Positions 1-15,318 of a DNA stretch of 38,004 nucleotides are shown in pieces. The notes under the pieces were generated by a model. The model saw only the letters and a list, made by a program, of their open reading frames with translations, was not told where the DNA came from and did no database searches. Position numbers and translations under genes: made by a program. This DNA is from Candidatus Aenigmatarchaeota archaeon (lineage in GTDB: Archaea; Aenigmatarchaeota; Aenigmatarchaeia; CG10238-14; SCSR01): contig JAWCSL010000008.1 in assembly GCA_039090665.1 (NCBI GenBank), positions 1-38,004 on the forward strand, read 5' to 3'. Every line of letters begins with the position of its first letter. Within the stretch, counting starts at the first letter, position 1.

Positions 1-1437
1 AACAAATTCATGTGGTAACATTATTTCTGGTATTTCTATACCAAACTTCCATCCAACTTCCTTAAGCTTAGCGTATTTGTTCCTCAAATGTTTTTTGTTG
101 AATGTAACGAAGTATTCAGCACCCAACAAGGAATAAACTATTATGGCAAGCGCATCCTCAGTTTTAATTTTAGCTTCTTTTGCAAAGTTCTCAGAAAATT
201 CCTTAATTTTAATACCCCTCTCTTTTTCAAAATTTCTTATTATTTTATCAGGATCAACAGTTTTGCAAAAATCTTTAAATAAGGAAATTAGTTTACTTAC
301 TATAGTTTTATTTTTCCAAGTTGCTATTTGATCTAAGGTATGTTTGCTTGCGATTAATTCGAATTCTTTTTCTTTAAGCCTTAAGAAATCGAAGAAGTCT
401 TTCGCCTCCTTTTTTCTAGCATCTTTTTCCATCCAGACATGAACAGAAGCAACGTCTATGTCAAAGGTTAATTTCCTTTTCCTTCTGAAGGCCGTTATCA
501 ATGGGAGAGCTAAAACTCCAGCATAGCTTACATTAGTAATTTCACTCAAAGAAGATTGAGTCTGAGCTAAAGCTGCTGGAAAAATCAAAATTGAAAAAAC
601 TATCGCTGATGAAAAAACTATAACTTTAAATGTGTTAATATTAATTCTTAATTTAGGTGGAGGCGTTGAAAAAAGACTTGTTAAGGAAATTAGAGGCTTT
701 ACCTTTAATACCGAGTGAAGTGAAGTTGAGATGTTTAGTTGAGGTGCTAAAGCAAAAATCCAGATCAAAAAGTTATAGAAAGAGTGTGCAAAGATAGAGG
801 TAAACAAATTAAAATCAGTAATGATGTAAATTATGGCAAACAAACTTCCAGAAAAAAATGTATGAGAAATACCATAAATGCTTCTATGGTATTTTGTTAG
901 TTTAGTTAAATGTTCTCCAAGATAATGGGCTAATGACCATAAAACTACAGAAGTGAGTATACCAAATAATGAAGTTTTAAACAGCACTGTTATTACTCCA
1001 AACCTGAATAGCAATTCTTCAACAATCGGAGCTATAATAACTCCTTCGAGGAATAACCCCCAAACATTGATTAACTGTTTTTTAACTAGGATTATAAACT
1101 TCCCGAAAACGTATACTACAAAGCCTGTTAAAAGTCCTGTAATAAAACTCTCGAGATTTAAAACAATTTTTGGTGTGTATGTCAAAAGAAGATAAATTGA
1201 AACTCCAAAAAGAACCAAAGTTATTAATAAACTTATTCTTCTAGAAAGTTTAGGCAGTTTTGCAGCAATAATGTAAAGTAGAAATATTAAAAATAGAGAG
1301 AGAATAAAATACAAATCTAAGTTAACATCTATAGGAGTAATTTCACTCAAAGGATGAGTCTGAGCTAAAGCTATAGAGGATAACATGCTCAGTGCAATCA
1401 AAACCATTGAAAATGTTTTAAATTTGGGACTCATCAT
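1..1437 (-). CDS. Partial (runs off window) multi-module membrane protein or polyprotein: signal peptide + CPBP (Abi/CAAX-type) intramembrane protease + second signal-peptide-like cassette + PIN-like domain
   Basis: Hand translation from ATG at 1437 (ATGA overlap with the upstream stop) shows no stop to position 1. It begins MMSPKFKTFSMVLIALSMLSSIALA/QTHPLSEITPIDVNLD. CPBP motifs: APIVEELLFR, WSLAH, AHSFYN. Second cassette: FSILIFPAALA/QTQSSLSEITNVSY. PIN-like motifs: LTFDIDV...TEDALAI...YFVTFNKKHL. Absent from the ORF track because the stop lies outside the window. Confidence 0.85.
   Translation of the reverse strand, partial: MMSPKFKTFSMVLIALSMLSSIALAQTHPLSEITPIDVNLDLYFILSLFLIFLLYIIAAKLPKLSRRISLLITLVLFGVSIYLLLTYTPKIVLNLESFITGLLTGFVVYVFGKFIILVKKQLINVWGLFLEGVIIAPIVEELLFRFGVITVLFKTSLFGILTSVVLWSLAHYLGEHLTKLTKYHRSIYGISHTFFSGSLFAIIYIITDFNLFTSIFAHSFYNFLIWIFALAPQLNISTSLHSVLKVKPLISLTSLFSTPPPKLRININTFKVIVFSSAIVFSILIFPAALAQTQSSLSEITNVSYAGVLALPLITAFRRKRKLTFDIDVASVHVWMEKDARKKEAKDFFDFLRLKEKEFELIASKHTLDQIATWKNKTIVSKLISLFKDFCKTVDPDKIIRNFEKERGIKIKEFSENFAKEAKIKTEDALAIIVYSLLGAEYFVTFNKKHLRNKYAKLKEVGWKFGIEIPEIMLPHEFV
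535..574. repeat. Copy 2 of an in-gene direct repeat encoding ALAQT(QSS/HP)LSEIT
   Basis: agtaatttcactcaaag-aagat-tgagtctgagctaaagct; shares identical 17-bp and 18-bp blocks with 1336-1372. Confidence 0.9.
1336..1372. repeat. Copy 1 of an in-gene direct repeat encoding ALAQTHPLSEIT
   Basis: agtaatttcactcaaag-ga-tgagtctgagctaaagct; differs from 535-574 only in the short central spacer (3 nt shorter, frame preserved). Confidence 0.9.
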
Positions 1438-2006
1438 TTTTTCCTCCTTTTCAAGAAACAAAGTTTAGCCCTGCCAACTTCTCTTTGTTCTACCAAACCT
1501 CTTACAACCAAAGCATAAACATACTTTGATATAGTTTGGCGAGGAATATTGAGAACTTTAGCTATCTCTAATATTTTCATACCTTCTGAATGCTTCTCCA
1601 ATAGCTTGAGTATATCTTTTTCACTAATTCCACTAAATCTTACAGATCTTTTGGGTTTTTCTTTAAGATGTTCTTCCTTATTTTTAATTTTTTCAAGAAT
1701 TTCATCCTTAGAGTTATCAAAATATTTTGCATCTATCACTTTTAATATGTCTTTACCTTTAAAGAGAAGACCAATTCCATGCTTTTTGAGAACTTCAAAA
1801 GGCAATACAATAAAAACTTTGTTGGCTTCTTCCAGATAGTGAAGGCATTGTCCTATTGCAGTTTGTATCTCATCTGCAGATTTCTTCTCCTCAAATGCAA
1901 CAACTTCTTTATCATTGTAGGCAATTAAGTCTGCTATTTTTCCTCCTATTCCTACATGTTTTACAGTTTTATAACCTTCTTTATACAACCATTCTGTTAA
2001 GTTCAT
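1434..2006 (-). CDS. PD-(D/E)XK restriction-endonuclease-like domain fused to C-terminal winged HTH
   Basis: GGKIADLIAY...VAFEEKK...AIGQCLHY (D...ExK and QxxxY pattern); C-terminal GMKILEIAKVLNIPRQTISKYVYAL..RGLVEQREVG wHTH. Confidence 0.75.
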   Translation of the reverse strand: MNLTEWLYKEGYKTVKHVGIGGKIADLIAYNDKEVVAFEEKKSADEIQTAIGQCLHYLEEANKVFIVLPFEVLKKHGIGLLFKGKDILKVIDAKYFDNSKDEILEKIKNKEEHLKEKPKRSVRFSGISEKDILKLLEKHSEGMKILEIAKVLNIPRQTISKYVYALVVRGLVEQREVGRAKLCFLKRRKK

Positions 2007-2635
2007 GCTATTCCTCCCTCCTTTTTAGCTAGAAAACAAAGCTTAGCAGTACCAACTTTCCTTTGAGTGATCATCCCTGCTCCAGAAAGTTCATAGATAT
2101 ACTTAGTGACAGTATTCCTGTTTACTCCCAGAATTTTAGAGATATCAAGGATTGTTATTCCTTCTTGATGTCTTTCCAAAATTTTCATTATCCTTGCTTT
2201 TAAATCTTCTTTAATCATTCTACTGGTAAACTCTTTCTTTCTTAAGCCCATGAGAAGATTGAATATGGAAGATTTATTTGTACCTGCTTCAATAACAACT
2301 TGAACTTTTTTCCTACTCAAACTTATAAGACCAATTCCATATGATTTAAGAGTAGATTTTGTATCATCGTTCAGTTTTTCGAGTTCTTTGGAGGGTAATG
2401 CTATGTACACTTTATTACATTCGTTCAAATAGTGTAGACACTGGTCTATCGCTTCTCGTACCTCTTCAGCTCTTTTTTTCACTTCAACTATGGCGATTTC
2501 TGCTTTTAGAGCTAAAACATCTGGAATTTTTCCCCCCAGAGGTACTTCTTTTACTATCTCGTATCCTCGTTTTTCAAACCATGTAGAAATGAGTGAGCTA
2601 TCGAAAGGATCTGAGTGATTTTCAGTCAAATGCAC
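2003..2635 (-). CDS. PD-(D/E)XK restriction-endonuclease-like domain fused to C-terminal winged HTH (paralog of 1434..2006)
   Basis: GGKIPDVLAL..IAIVEVKK...AIDQCLHY; wHTH GITILDISKILGVNRNTVTKYIYEL..AGMITQRKVG; GTG start; stop overlaps next gene (ATGA). Confidence 0.75.
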   Translation of the reverse strand: MHLTENHSDPFDSSLISTWFEKRGYEIVKEVPLGGKIPDVLALKAEIAIVEVKKRAEEVREAIDQCLHYLNECNKVYIALPSKELEKLNDDTKSTLKSYGIGLISLSRKKVQVVIEAGTNKSSIFNLLMGLRKKEFTSRMIKEDLKARIMKILERHQEGITILDISKILGVNRNTVTKYIYELSGAGMITQRKVGTAKLCFLAKKEGGIA

Positions 2636-2661
2636 ACCTTTTTTGCTTTTCTCGTCATTTT

Positions 2662-2693
2662 TGCTTAGCTATGCATATATGCATAGCTAAGCA
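2662..2693. repeat. Perfect 32-bp palindrome
   Basis: tgcttagctatgcata|tatgcatagctaagca, 26 bp upstream of the 2635 start. Confidence 0.95.
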
Positions 2694-2860
2694 CATACTC
2701 TATGTTTATCATATATGTCGAACTTTATATGATTTTCTATTTTATAGAAAATCCAAAATCGAATAAGCTGTGATTAAAAGTTTCCAAAACAATTTGGAGT
2801 TTTTTCGACAAGAAAAAAAGTTTATTTTTTGTTTTTTACTCGAAAACTGAATTGATTTAA

Positions 2861-2921
2861 ATTTCAATTCAAAAAATTTTCTATAAAAATCCGACTTGAA
2901 ATATATTTCAATTCAAAAAAT
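2861..2921. repeat. Two identical 17-bp direct repeats in an AT-rich divergent intergenic region
   Basis: atttcaattcaaaaaat at 2861-2877 and 2905-2921. Confidence 0.8.
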
Positions 2922-3023
2922 AACATTTAGAAATTGAATTTTCTCAAGATTTTCCCGAGTCGATTTTTTCGACTTGATTTCGACTTAAAAAATCAATTTT
3001 AAGCCAAAAAACAAATAATAATT

Positions 3024-3515: not shown

Positions 3516-4099
3516 TATTTGCATCCTGTAGCTGATTCAAACCACTCTATTGTTTTAACTCCCGGTTCAATTCTTCCTGCAAAGACTACTGAAGGCACTT
3601 GAGTCACATTGGCTTGTACACAATTAACCACAAGATCCCCATCACAAGGCACGTAAAGCTTTGTTGAATATACACCAAGAACATTCAACTGGAGCAAAGT
3701 TGCTGTTTGATTGCTCAAGCCAAAAATTCTTACACCTTTGCTATCTAAACAATCCACAAAATCTTTTAACCTTTTCATTTGCTGTATCGACTGCTCAACA
3801 AAAATGACATTTTGTGTCAAAAGCTTTCCATCCTTGCTAATGTAGATTTCAGCATAGTTTGTTCCCGCTGGCCCAACAGCTTTTATCAAAGCTTTATACA
3901 AACCACTTTCTTCATTTAAAGTTAAAACTTCTACACTAGTTCCAGGATTTGCGAGCTCATACAAAGTTTTTATCCTTTCACTGACTTTACTTTTCGGTAT
4001 GCCAAAACACAAAGTAATAAAGCCTGTAGTGCTAATCGCTAAAAGTAAGCCAAGTAAAACCAAACAAACAGCTATCACTAATATTCTCGATTTTTGCAT
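3512..4099 (-). CDS. Membrane-anchored thioredoxin-fold protein lacking CxxC
   Basis: N-terminal TM; DsbC-N-like YISKDGK; FVDCLDSKG....G...Q....G....YVPC...C......VPS...G......ESATGC pattern of VKOR-associated Trx-like proteins. Confidence 0.5.
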   Translation of the reverse strand: MQKSRILVIAVCLVLLGLLLAISTTGFITLCFGIPKSKVSERIKTLYELANPGTSVEVLTLNEESGLYKALIKAVGPAGTNYAEIYISKDGKLLTQNVIFVEQSIQQMKRLKDFVDCLDSKGVRIFGLSNQTATLLQLNVLGVYSTKLYVPCDGDLVVNCVQANVTQVPSVVFAGRIEPGVKTIEWFESATGCKY

Positions 4100-11739: not shown

Positions 11740-14700
11740 TTACATCTTCTGCAAGAAGCCTGTTCTTGGTTCAAACAAGTCTCCCTTGTTCTTTAGTTCT
11801 GTTAAAATTTTTTCTACATCAAACTCTTTCAGTCCTTTATCTTTTGCAAGTCTAATCACATCTTCTTTTGGAAAAGTATTTCCGATAGTTTTGGATAACT
11901 CTTCTATAATATCAAGCACGATTCTGATTTTTCCTCTTTCTGAGGCAGTAGTTCGACCTTCAAGTCTATCTACATCAAATCTTCCTGTTTCAGCTTCAAA
12001 ACCAAATTCTCTTAAAGAAGCTTTCATCAATTTTATAGCTCTTATGGCATCTTCTCTTGTTACCACATCTCTTAATTGAACTTTTGCTGAAGCTTCTGCT
12101 AATCTTATTAAAGCTTCGTACTGCCTCAGTGTTATAGGTACTGCCGTTTCTTCTACAGCAGCTTTTTCTCTTAGACTAACGAAGAAATTCTTTATCTCTT
12201 CACCTGCTTCTTTAGAAAGTTTTGGATGACAATTTTTCCTAGCATATGCAATATACTTCTTGAGAAACTCAGGCTCTATAACAGGTTTAATTTCTTCCTC
12301 TCCATAATGCCTTGACTTAAGAATATGTTCAGCAACTTTTGCATCAAGCTCAGGATTTGGTATATCGCGTAAAGCAAACTTCAAATCAAATCTTGAAAGC
12401 AATGTTTCGGGAACATCTATTTGTTCTTTTATCGGTAAATAAGGATCAAATCTTCCAAGTTTAGGATTACCACCAGCAAGGATCGCTGTTTGTGCTGGTA
12501 AAGTAGCAACTATACTTGCTTTGGCTATGCTTATGGAGTTGTGTAAAATTAGGCATTCTGATACAAATGTTTTAGTAGGCTCGACTGTTATGTCATAAAC
12601 CCATTCATCTTCACATTTGATCTTTTGAACTTTCTTCACAGTTACCCATGCTATTTCACCAAATGCTAATTTTTTTAGAAAAATAACTTCTTCTTTGCAT
12701 AAAAGCATTTTATCAATAACATTTTTCAACCCTTCTCTATATTTTTCTAAATTGGTGCTAGTTTTCTCCCAATAAGATATATGTTGATGCGTCAAACCCA
12801 GAGTTTTGGCTATATCTTCTTGAGAGATAGAAAGCCTTTTTCTTATTTTTTTCAATTCACTAATATTCTTTGCTGATGAAATTTTGTATAATTGTTTTTC
12901 TAAATCGAAAATTTTCTTCTCAAATATCAACACAAATTTTTGTAAATTGGCTCGAGATATGTTTAACTTACCTTTTTTAATCGATGTTATAGAATGACCT
13001 AAAACTTTGCTTTCTTTTATTTTTAGATTTTTTGCAATTTTGGAAATTCTTTTTCCAACATTTGGAATTACATCTCTTGATATTTTTTTCGATAATTTTA
13101 ATTGTTGATTAAGCACACTATTTTTTCTTTTAGAAATAAAACCTATTTTTTCTTTGAATCTCTTCAAGTTTTCAATACCAGTAATACTTAATCTAAAGAA
13201 ATTTTTTCTTGATGGTAAACTTTCTCTGAATATTCTAGATTGAATTCTGAACATTAAGAGTAATGTTTGTATTTGTTCACAAAGCTCTTTGGAAGGGGAA
13301 ACAAATTCTACTCTATTTTTACCCACATACCCCCCACATTCAAACATAGCTCTTAACATTTCACGAATGTTGTTATTAGAAGTTTTCATAAAAGTTTCTG
13401 GTATTTTTTTATTTTCTGATTCCTCCCAAATAGAAGCATCCAAAGAATTTAAATACACAGATAAGGGTAGTGAAATTATTCTTGGTGTAGTAGTTTTCCC
13501 TAATCTATTTTGAACATAAGGAGCAAGGCCAAAAAGTTTGCATGAAATAGAAGAAAAATCTTTTATCAGATTTTCATCACTTTTATTAAAATTCACACTA
13601 TTCTTTTTTCTCCTATCGAGCTCGTAGCCTCCATCTGTGAGCAAATTCACTGTATATTTGCTCAATTTTTTATCATTGTATGATGGAAAATTTTCCAATA
13701 TTCTATCTTTTATTAAATTTTGATACATTCCTTTTATTGGTAGAATTTTAGGCACGGGAACATAAGACCCACTTTTTAAACTTTCAGCTCTTACAGTTGT
13801 AATCCCATCTTCTGTTAATATCCAAATAGGATGTTCTGGTGTTACTACTATTTCTCTACCATTTGAAAAACTAATTTTTATCATATATTTTCCCGCTTTA
13901 TGTCTACTCACTTGCTTTACTTCACTTTCATAGATTTTTTCAAAATCGGTTGTGAAAACTTTAATTTCACCATTCAGGTTTAATATTTCACAATTATTTC
14001 CATTAATAACTTTATCTTTATTCCTTTCAATTAAACCATTAACCAATTCTCCTATTTTAACTTCTCTCCCGTCGGATAGCAAAATTTTCGTATCCTTATG
14101 GTATGACTGCTGTTCCATCGCTTCGTGTAAAGCAATTTGATCACTTTTTTCAACTTTCTCAAATTCATCTATGGCACAAAGTGATTTATTACACATGACC
14201 AGAGCACCAGCTTCAAGAACCCATCCACCTAGAAATTCTTCATCTCTTACCACAGTTGCCGTTAATCCTGCAGCAGTTACTCCTTTACCAGAAACATATC
14301 TTCCACGAGGAATTAGTGTAGCAACTACTTTCATCAAAGCACTCTTAGCTGTTGATGGATCCCCAACTAATAATATGTGAATATCTCCTCTCACTCTAGA
14401 TTTATCTTTTTGAATGTGTGGTTCACCACCAAAAAGCTGGAGAACAATAGCCTCTTTTATTTCTTCCATACCATACAAACTTGGTGCTATTGATGCTACA
14501 AGCTTAGAATAAATTTCAGGATCTTTGGCAAGTTCAAGAATTCTCTTTTCGTCTTCTGGTGTGATTTCCAATTCTTCCCATTCTACTTCTACACTTTCAA
14601 CAGAATTTGCATCAATATAGATTTCAAGCTGTCTCGATCTAGTACCTCTAACTCTTCTTGGGATTTGTTTAAGAATACCAACAACTTTTATTCTATTTCC

Positions 14701-15318
14701 AGGATCTGTTTTGTTTTGCATCTTTGGTGAAGTCAAATCTTCTTTTAAGAAAACCATTATTTCAGAAGGTCTTTCACCACTTGTTATTTCAAAAGGTTCT
14801 TCTATTGTTATCCATCTCGCATCATAAAGCTTTTGGTCTACAAGTTTGAAATTTCTTCTATTTCCACACTCACACTCATTAGGTGGTTTAATGAATCTTT
14901 CTGTTTGAAGTACTGTTATCTTGGAGCCACATTCTGAACATTGAAAAACAGCTTCATAAACTTCTGGTCTAATTTCACTAGCTCTTTTAACAATTCCATC
15001 AACAGAAATAAGCTTGCCTATGTGCTCTGCTCTTATATTCCTTATTCTTATTTGCCTTTCTTCTGGCAAATTGAAAATCCTAATTCTCATAGAAGGTTGG
15101 CCTGGTAGATCTATTTGTTTTAAGGATTCTTCAGCTGCACTCAAAACTTCTTCTGGGTTATCAAGCAAATAGCTTGCCAGCTCTGGATTGAACTTGTCTA
15201 AAAGAGAAAAGTCTACAACCAAAGATTTTTTCCCTTCACTTGCGGCCGAAACTAACTCATTGTAGTAATATTCTCTCAAAAATTCAGCAAACTTTTCTAC
15301 TATTTCTTCCCTTTCCAT
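11740..15318 (-). CDS. mcm: MCM replicative helicase containing one intein (about 669 aa after splicing)
   Basis: Zn finger CSEC..C, GDIHILLVGDPSTAKS, AAGLTA, IDEFEK, HEAMEQQ/SISIAKA, LLSRFDL, ITLRQYEALIRLAEA. Confidence 0.97.
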   Translation of the reverse strand: MEREEIVEKFAEFLREYYYNELVSAASEGKKSLVVDFSLLDKFNPELASYLLDNPEEVLSAAEESLKQIDLPGQPSMRIRIFNLPEERQIRIRNIRAEHIGKLISVDGIVKRASEIRPEVYEAVFQCSECGSKITVLQTERFIKPPNECECGNRRNFKLVDQKLYDARWITIEEPFEITSGERPSEIMVFLKEDLTSPKMQNKTDPGNRIKVVGILKQIPRRVRGTRSRQLEIYIDANSVESVEVEWEELEITPEDEKRILELAKDPEIYSKLVASIAPSLYGMEEIKEAIVLQLFGGEPHIQKDKSRVRGDIHILLVGDPSTAKSALMKVVATLIPRGRYVSGKGVTAAGLTATVVRDEEFLGGWVLEAGALVMCNKSLCAIDEFEKVEKSDQIALHEAMEQQSYHKDTKILLSDGREVKIGELVNGLIERNKDKVINGNNCEILNLNGEIKVFTTDFEKIYESEVKQVSRHKAGKYMIKISFSNGREIVVTPEHPIWILTEDGITTVRAESLKSGSYVPVPKILPIKGMYQNLIKDRILENFPSYNDKKLSKYTVNLLTDGGYELDRRKKNSVNFNKSDENLIKDFSSISCKLFGLAPYVQNRLGKTTTPRIISLPLSVYLNSLDASIWEESENKKIPETFMKTSNNNIREMLRAMFECGGYVGKNRVEFVSPSKELCEQIQTLLLMFRIQSRIFRESLPSRKNFFRLSITGIENLKRFKEKIGFISKRKNSVLNQQLKLSKKISRDVIPNVGKRISKIAKNLKIKESKVLGHSITSIKKGKLNISRANLQKFVLIFEKKIFDLEKQLYKISSAKNISELKKIRKRLSISQEDIAKTLGLTHQHISYWEKTSTNLEKYREGLKNVIDKMLLCKEEVIFLKKLAFGEIAWVTVKKVQKIKCEDEWVYDITVEPTKTFVSECLILHNSISIAKASIVATLPAQTAILAGGNPKLGRFDPYLPIKEQIDVPETLLSRFDLKFALRDIPNPELDAKVAEHILKSRHYGEEEIKPVIEPEFLKKYIAYARKNCHPKLSKEAGEEIKNFFVSLREKAAVEETAVPITLRQYEALIRLAEASAKVQLRDVVTREDAIRAIKLMKASLREFGFEAETGRFDVDRLEGRTTASERGKIRIVLDIIEELSKTIGNTFPKEDVIRLAKDKGLKEFDVEKILTELKNKGDLFEPRTGFLQKM
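12538..14106 (-). mobile_element. Intein (523 aa) in MCM with degenerate LAGLIDADG domain and an XRE-type HTH
   Basis: Begins SYHKDTKILLSDG after EAMEQQ; block B VTPEHP; ends WVYDITVEPTKTFVSECLILHN followed by Ser+1. Confidence 0.95.

Follow-up and report, generated by a model that had tools for sequence, protein, structure and literature searches.

An apparent in-frame cassette array in the leader of a fibre-like surface protein gene of an Aenigmatarchaeota archaeon, and its probable processing by signal peptidase I

Structure of the locus

We analysed a stretch of 38,004 nucleotides (hereafter the window; G000:C14:1-38004, G000 being the genome under study) from a Candidatus Aenigmatarchaeota archaeon. 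On its minus strand, one frame runs from position 1437 to position 1 with no stop over 479 codons and leaves the contig at its end, in agreement with the earlier note, which had reported a stop-free frame of at least this length. The start codon of this ORF overlaps the stop of the upstream winged-helix gene (1434-1437, minus strand), and a good ribosome-binding site, GGAGG, is at 1443..1447 on the same strand. The upstream neighbour (1434..2006, minus), coupled to the ORF start, joins a nuclease-like domain to the winged helix, and a second nuclease-like and winged-helix paralogue (2003..2635, minus) is the first gene of the run. This tandem pair (1434-2635) is present in G005 of the same genus too, and G007 has a bare winged helix; the pair may represent further insertions. 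The divergent intergenic region at 2636-3023 is AT-rich and contains, besides other inverted repeats, a perfect 32-nt palindrome (2662-2693); in genus g6 further toxin-antitoxin genes occur at its far side. The remainder of the window is ordinary chromosome, with RFC, MCM and AspRS close by, and a viral origin was rejected because the locus lies in such a setting. The MCM helicase (11740-15318; 1,192 aa) carries a large insertion that matches intein-bearing proteins.

Within the ORF, all features are on the minus strand. Signal peptide 1 (aa 1-25; 1363..1437), the orthologue of the single signal peptide in the insert-free fibre of G005, is overlapped by leader copy 1 (1322..1385), a direct repeat of leader 3 beyond the window. 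A hydrophobic helix (aa 42-60; 1258..1314) and then basic residues follow, and the helix would return the chain across the membrane. The CPBP/Rce1 protease core (aa 125-224; 766..1065) lies within cassette 1 (801 nt, 556-1356). Internal signal helix 2 (aa 272-291; 565..624) ends in Ala-Leu-Ala, has no in-frame start codon nearby and overlaps leader copy 2 (523..574), a deletion derivative of leader 3. A short hydrophobic stretch with RRKRK (472..531; KD 1.85, the second weakest open-frame case), which may cross the membrane, stands before the PIN/VapC-fold domain (1..477), part of cassette 2 (753 nt). Just beyond the window are leader 3 (L028:10-153, minus), the 33-aa convergent partner gene of PIN (L028:187-288, plus) and a TATA-like box.

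Other assemblies supply the full ORF of 1,475 stop-free codons, ordered as leader 1, CPBP protease, leader 2, PIN, leader 3 and a 933-residue tail-fibre-like surface protein, of which the window holds the 5' third (protein P0010 is identical across all 479 aa). Two forms in a protein collection, one of 646 aa and the complete one of 1,475 aa, are identical to the window protein. The complete precursor has three leader matches and is without a hydrophobic segment after aa 540. Contigs of runs X7 and X8 continue for 163 letters past window position 1 and then enter a leader copy, with X1 (perhaps the run from which the window itself derives) and X3 consistent; this is leader 3, in frame, with the fibre after it. 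Metagenome contig L028, which differs from the window by 4 mismatches across 9,000 nt, keeps the frame open for 585 codons into the complete third leader. No G000 contig overlapped the window start, and the fibre body is absent from the G000 assembly. The passage from CPBP to PIN, proposed to be free of stops, was thus seen intact in independent assemblies. The suggestion of a much longer array did not hold, since the array is finite here, with two cassettes and then the third leader and the fibre.

The leader repeat and an insert-free relative

The helix-ALA|Q motifs of the window protein lie at aa 23-26 and 289-292, where the earlier note had seen a repeated cassette, and a DNA repeat beyond chance underlies both (535-574 against 1336-1372, 36 of 40 aligned columns). 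The longest exact repeat is 18 nt; a length of 17 was reached in 0 of 500 codon shuffles. The cassettes are present as described, but it had been missed that the repeat is the N-terminus of a downstream fibre, the main product. Among 60 relatives searched, the first 45 residues of the window protein match the N-terminal ends of long, fibre-like proteins encoded at this locus. A leader profile found matches in 36 of the 117 genomes of the order and 48 of the 370 of the phylum, and 175 matches among 1.84 billion protein representatives.

G005 has a fibre with a single leader and without an insert. Its signal aligns to leader 1, whereas its core and body align to leader 3, with 77% identity between the G005 fibre and the precursor body over aa 520-752. 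The ORF is thus a fibre gene plus an insert of 1,554 nt, composed of two cassettes of 801 and 753 nt. The 933 residues after leader 3 gave phage tail-fibre profile matches, and the fibre start as a query in the ESM Atlas returned unnamed viral clusters only, at 0.90. Judging from these alignments, the repeated helix-plus-motif is the putative fibre's own N-terminus.

Protease and PIN cassettes

The CPBP protease named in the earlier note was borne out by a PF02517 match (aa 125-224, E 2e-10) together with the EExxxR, xxxxH and HxxxN motifs of this family, its activity being putative. A single-sequence model of cassette 1 was uninformative (pLDDT 54, pTM 0.24). No CPBP relative was found among 627 candidates of 108-345 aa, nor with this query in the 116 other genomes of the order; an in-frame remnant occurs in P0017. 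The PIN-like domain, also named there, had no Pfam match, but its model was of high quality (pLDDT 95) and a fold search ranked VapC/PIN structures first. In an alignment with 15 relatives, D326, D328, E427, D428 and N447 never vary (15/15), and at D369 the family usually has Glu. Three acidic positions, presumably catalytic, are kept, with Asn at the fourth in 15/15; the window PIN is no more substituted than its free-standing relatives, contrary to the earlier impression of partial substitution. Neither PIN nor CPBP gave a PADLOC or PHROG match, and the PIN family was not found in viral contigs.

Other genomes have the PIN family at 19 loci, and in all of them a small gene on the opposite strand converges on it (19/19, a partly circular count because most of the 14 sequences behind the partner profile came from these very loci). 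The 33-aa partner in G000, just past the window, aligns with this partner family and is likely the antitoxin of PIN. Elsewhere, stop-to-stop PIN frames do not exceed 196 codons in 18 of the 19 loci; loss of start and stop therefore appears specific to fibre-type loci. In G050 (L018:2840-4345), a 502-codon frame holds a helix pair, PIN and filler over two antisense partner genes, and ends in a winged helix that duplicates the one of the upstream gene; the near-identical copies are 1,438 nt apart with PIN between them. P0001 (L082:88-840) is a PIN with its own start and no stop, fused to fibre remnants; 81-nt repeats of 95% similarity flank it, and beyond them come a nucleotidyltransferase-HEPN pair and a further fibre gene.

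Arrays in related genomes

We read all 36 leader-bearing loci of the Aenigmatarchaeota order and found cargo at the leader site in 8 of the 36 genomes (G000, G010, G012, G022, G085, G086, G090 and G091); five of the eight belong to one genus, so the counts are not independent. The cargo comprised RelB/RelE-like pairs (with a ParE match), DUF433/DUF5615 pairs, two small membrane genes, tRNA-like genes, PIN and CPBP. Every cargo gene in genomes other than G000 and G022 was on the opposite strand. A TATA-like box preceded 6 of 9 opposite-strand cargo starts, compared with 306 of 4,800 random positions. Shared cassettes were 64-87% identical between genomes and differed in order; for example, the RelBE and tRNA cassettes in G090 are reversed relative to G091 and G012. 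The array contig of G010 stops before any fibre body. A protein library added P0012, with two leaders, and P0017, which carries the CPBP remnant in frame; two full leaders were present in 3 proteins among the 150 matches listed. P0012 and P0018 have a common filler ahead of the leader that resembles an off-frame reading of a small gene. Cargo varies among the eight genomes with no fixed fusion, as the earlier note had anticipated. Its view of the frame as a series of released modules stood in part: the same-strand CPBP and PIN would fit, but most relatives carry their cargo on the opposite strand and the frame there therefore encodes filler. Taken together, these comparisons indicate that the locus is an accessory-gene array inserted into the leader of a surface protein.

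The fibre frame was open across the cargo in 7 of the 8 cargo genomes. All 12 leader-to-leader intervals (five genomes) were multiples of 3, and all 16 cargo segments (seven genomes) had 0 stops in the leader frame compared with 2-34 in the other two frames. The open frames used only the two stop-poor registers. Among G000's own genes, 200-codon windows had any open antisense frame in 1 of 526 cases and 90-codon windows in 107 of 1,290, and small control ORFs beside the arrays had one in 3 of 22. When the antisense genes of eight cassettes were recoded synonymously, the frame was open in 15, 25, 42, 46, 216, 313, 438 and 1,719 of 3,000 trials. An open frame is sometimes cheap for short opposite-strand genes; some individual cassettes are thus unremarkable, and homologous cassettes do not count as independent cases. 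The joint pattern across arrays is strong. The exception was G022, where one of two cassettes (PIN, 775 nt, 7 stops) breaks the frame and that PIN has a start of its own. Stops occur in comparable repeat-delimited arrays of other DPANN.

Six tRNA-Ser-type genes lie outside the window in G012, G090 and G091 (L017:1321-1423; L029:668-770, 2218-2321 and 2591-2690; L030:3182-3285 and 3566-3668). All six had 7/7 acceptor pairs, 5/5 T-stem pairs, G73 and a long variable arm; their T loop is interrupted by a bulge-helix-bulge intron and becomes canonical once this is removed. Of 96 cells, 95 pair, and the covariation exceeded 500 of 500 shuffles, although the sequences were few and related. The anticodons are of Glu (2), Ile (2) and Met (1) type, and the sixth gene parses as Ser or Glu; two ordinary relatives, taken from model matches, are tRNA-Ser(CGA) with the same acceptor start. 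Each gene has an exact 10-38 nt piece of itself repeated 57-88 nt upstream, beside its TATA box. ARAGORN missed all six and Rfam gave one sub-threshold match. Allo-tRNAs, which in the accessible part of PMC5389517 are bacterial with 8/4 or 9/3 stems, resemble this cargo in having serine-type bodies, non-serine anticodons and a position near toxin-antitoxin genes. However, the array tRNAs are archaeal, carry a T-loop bulge-helix-bulge intron and lie antisense inside an open frame, and we rejected an allo-tRNA identity as no 8/4 or 9/3 acceptor branch was found (7/5 type in 6/6).

Translation starts and membrane helices

In six arrays, the nearest ATG to the fibre-attached leader was 60-243 codons upstream and without an SD-like site, compared with 20-34 codons in 18 of 21 single-leader loci. 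The remaining single-leader loci were two winged-helix fusions or TTG starts; G026 and G033 gave 94 and 79 codons, and two loci had no ATG. One internal copy in G086 has a TTG with an SD-like site 24 codons upstream, a possible start. Because the fibre-attached signal lacks a start codon of its own, the fibre appears to depend on read-through.

Of the 15 cargo-followed leaders, 14 have a hydrophobic 15-mer with a hydropathy of 1.7 or more in the next 60 residues; of the 30 fibre-followed ones, 1 does. This cut was picked after the values were seen (rank test p 5e-7). The sole internal leader without such a return helix is the G022 copy ending in a stop. This pattern supports the earlier proposal that a helix with basic residues would leave PIN in the cytoplasm, although the helix before PIN is short. 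The small-x-Ala motif was kept at 14 of 15 internal copies (G091 has one copy without the -1 Ala), and jointly with the following Gln-His-Pro motif it occurred in 14 of 15 internal and 25 of 29 first copies. The hallmarks of a polyprotein were found here: one continuous ORF, several signal helices and small-x-Ala sites. A winged-helix domain was fused ahead of the leader in 10 of the 150 matches listed, and these fusions, like the HEPN domain of G226, suggest that cytoplasmic domains are tolerated ahead of the signal. In G226 (L074:3051-4796), the HEPN RNase domain shares a frame with the distant leader copy and the fibre that follow it.

The eukaryotic signal peptidase cuts internal signals in viral polyproteins. 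Archaeal signal peptidase I (TIGR02228) was found in 5 of 5 genomes, with G000:C10 above the curated cut-off, and archaeal signal peptidases resemble the eukaryotic enzyme, according to the accessible text of PMC4343526. It is likely that signal peptidase I cuts the precursor at the internal Ala-x-Ala sites.

Cassette movement

Over the 42 nt around the cleavage site, leader similarity was 0.79 within and 0.61 between genomes, and the flanks barely differed; in genus g6, the leader cores had values of 0.77 and 0.67, respectively. Archaeal attC sites are likewise more alike within genomes (PMC9668308, in its accessible part). The 1,598-nt contig G022:C20 overlaps itself by 55 nt at its ends and contains two cassettes and two leaders; it would be either an excised circle or a collapsed tandem repeat. 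An attC pair of core sites was not found on one strand in any of 29 leaders, and leader folds were mostly at shuffle level, just 2 of the 29 reaching a z below -2 on both strands. Tyrosine recombinases were present in 5 of 5 genomes (56-92% complete), and 9 of 9 best matched the archaeal XerA-like model NF040815; none was adjacent to an array, and the G000 recombinase matched the integron model in two separate stretches only. An integron was rejected given the lack of attC core pairs and of an IntI integrase in these genomes. Intein-like or intron-like removal was also rejected, as the direct repeats and return helices do not fit; the motif search was by Pfam only. We regard homologous recombination between leader cores as the simplest reading of how the cassettes would move.

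Direct repeats bracket the PIN module in 8 of the 19 PIN loci. In L087, L083 and L097, the bracketing repeats are partial copies of the 5' end of the downstream gene, with stops and separate starts, so that the fused frame seems to be a special case of a wider habit. In other DPANN-like contigs (L087/L115, L083/L095/L112, L097/L125 and L111), PIN and nucleotidyltransferase modules follow one another in runs, with partial 5'-end copies of a downstream gene, and stops, between them.

Discussion

We consider it probable that this is a surface-fibre gene with in-frame cassettes stacked in its leader, and that its one long product passes through the membrane and is cleaved by signal peptidase I at each Ala-x-Ala site, which frees the fibre. 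Each cassette would bring a new signal helix at its 3' end and no start codon, and this helix would often overlap an outward promoter for opposite-strand cargo. The fibre would be made only when ribosomes read through from the first ATG, a requirement that would impose selection against stops and frameshifts. After each internal leader, the return helix would bring the chain back inside and the next signal helix could export it again. Same-strand cargo such as CPBP and PIN may be released as membrane-bound pieces, and over opposite-strand cargo the frame would be filler. The cassettes were probably gained, lost and reordered by homologous recombination between leader cores of about 40 nt, via circles and without a dedicated integrase, and the toxin-antitoxin cargo likely stabilises the array or serves in defence.

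Other explanations have to be weighed. The ORF stands at a contig end and contains repeats, as an assembly artefact might, but the same sequence is present in L028, P0007, P0010 and contigs from the runs of three other studies, and other genomes have analogous arrays; we give this explanation practically no weight. A more serious one, unlikely in our view, is that the precursor stays whole and the uncut internal helices anchor the fibre to a multi-pass cargo segment. No further hydrophobic anchor is present in the fibre, and the winged-helix fusions (10/150 of the matches listed) and the HEPN domain of G226 recall membrane-tethered regulators. However, small-x-Ala with Gln-His-Pro is kept as often at internal (14/15) as at first copies (25/29), and the filler varies freely between genomes.

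The long direct repeats also suggest a DNA switch, in which recombination between leaders 1 and 3 excises the cargo, only the excised allele makes fibre and the open frame is a leftover; G005 would be the excised form, and G022:C20 resembles the excised circle. Yet a silent state needs neither open frames nor return helices, which seven genomes have. The insert is present in three assemblies and in contigs of four runs, and no joint skipping it was seen among the matches listed, although contigs drop rare variants. We think such a switch rather improbable. Still less probable is movement by a site-specific recombinase, an integron integrase or XerA in trans, at an att site in the leader core, which would leave the polyprotein part unchanged. 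The homogenised 42-nt core, the recombinases in all five genomes and the within-genome likeness of archaeal attC sites (as far as the accessible text of PMC9668308 goes) speak for it. Against it are the 29 leaders with no attC core pair and only two with fold z below -2 on both strands, the nine XerA-like recombinases of which none adjoins an array, and the variable cargo boundaries. A bolder version of the fibre-leader array is possible, though doubtful as a whole: integrase-free gene capture in the leader, circulating cassettes co-adapted on both strands, translation of the whole array as a cellular polyprotein, and some cassettes being anticodon-swapped serine tRNAs that act as mistranslating RNA toxins or nuclease decoys.

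The array of cassettes in the fibre leader has partial counterparts among known systems. Structural polyproteins of flaviviruses and hepaciviruses are cut by host signal peptidase and share with the precursor alternating signal and stop-transfer helices, Ala-x-Ala sites and one long product. The present precursor differs in lying on a cellular chromosome, in its variable cargo, a good part of which is on the other strand, and in an apparent purpose of rescuing one downstream protein. The cytochrome b-c1 precursor FbcH of Bradyrhizobium is a two-protein prokaryotic product likewise split at an internal signal, but it is a fixed fusion of two partner subunits with no repeats, cassette turnover or overprinting. 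Integron arrays, including archaeal ones, share tandem accessory cassettes, repeats more alike within a genome, toxin-antitoxin cargo, reordering and possible circles, according to the accessible part of PMC9668308. In contrast, the fibre-leader array has no attC structure and no integron integrase; its repeat is protein-coding and part of a host gene, and a single open frame runs through the array. In polymorphic toxin systems, as the accessible text of PMC3482391 describes them, toxin-bearing cassettes recombine into the gene of a large exported protein and replace its delivered C-terminal tip. Here the cassettes stack at the 5' end and would remain in the producing cell; a polymorphic toxin system was rejected, as the cargo is N-terminal to the fibre and P0010 ends in fibre sequence. 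In a literature search that covered mostly open-access main texts, no listed paper described this system.

If our reading is true, these archaea would possess a cellular, variable polyprotein processed by signal peptidase, and a gene-cassette system in which a signal peptide serves as the repeat. In several lineages, entire operons and tRNA genes are overprinted beneath a host reading frame, and defence-type cargo is tied to a probable host-attachment fibre of symbiotic archaea. Gene callers hide such arrays, either fusing the cargo into a single hypothetical protein or omitting it. The related toxin-antitoxin arrays of other DPANN, likewise delimited by repeats, suggest that such modules accumulate in a broader manner as yet undescribed.
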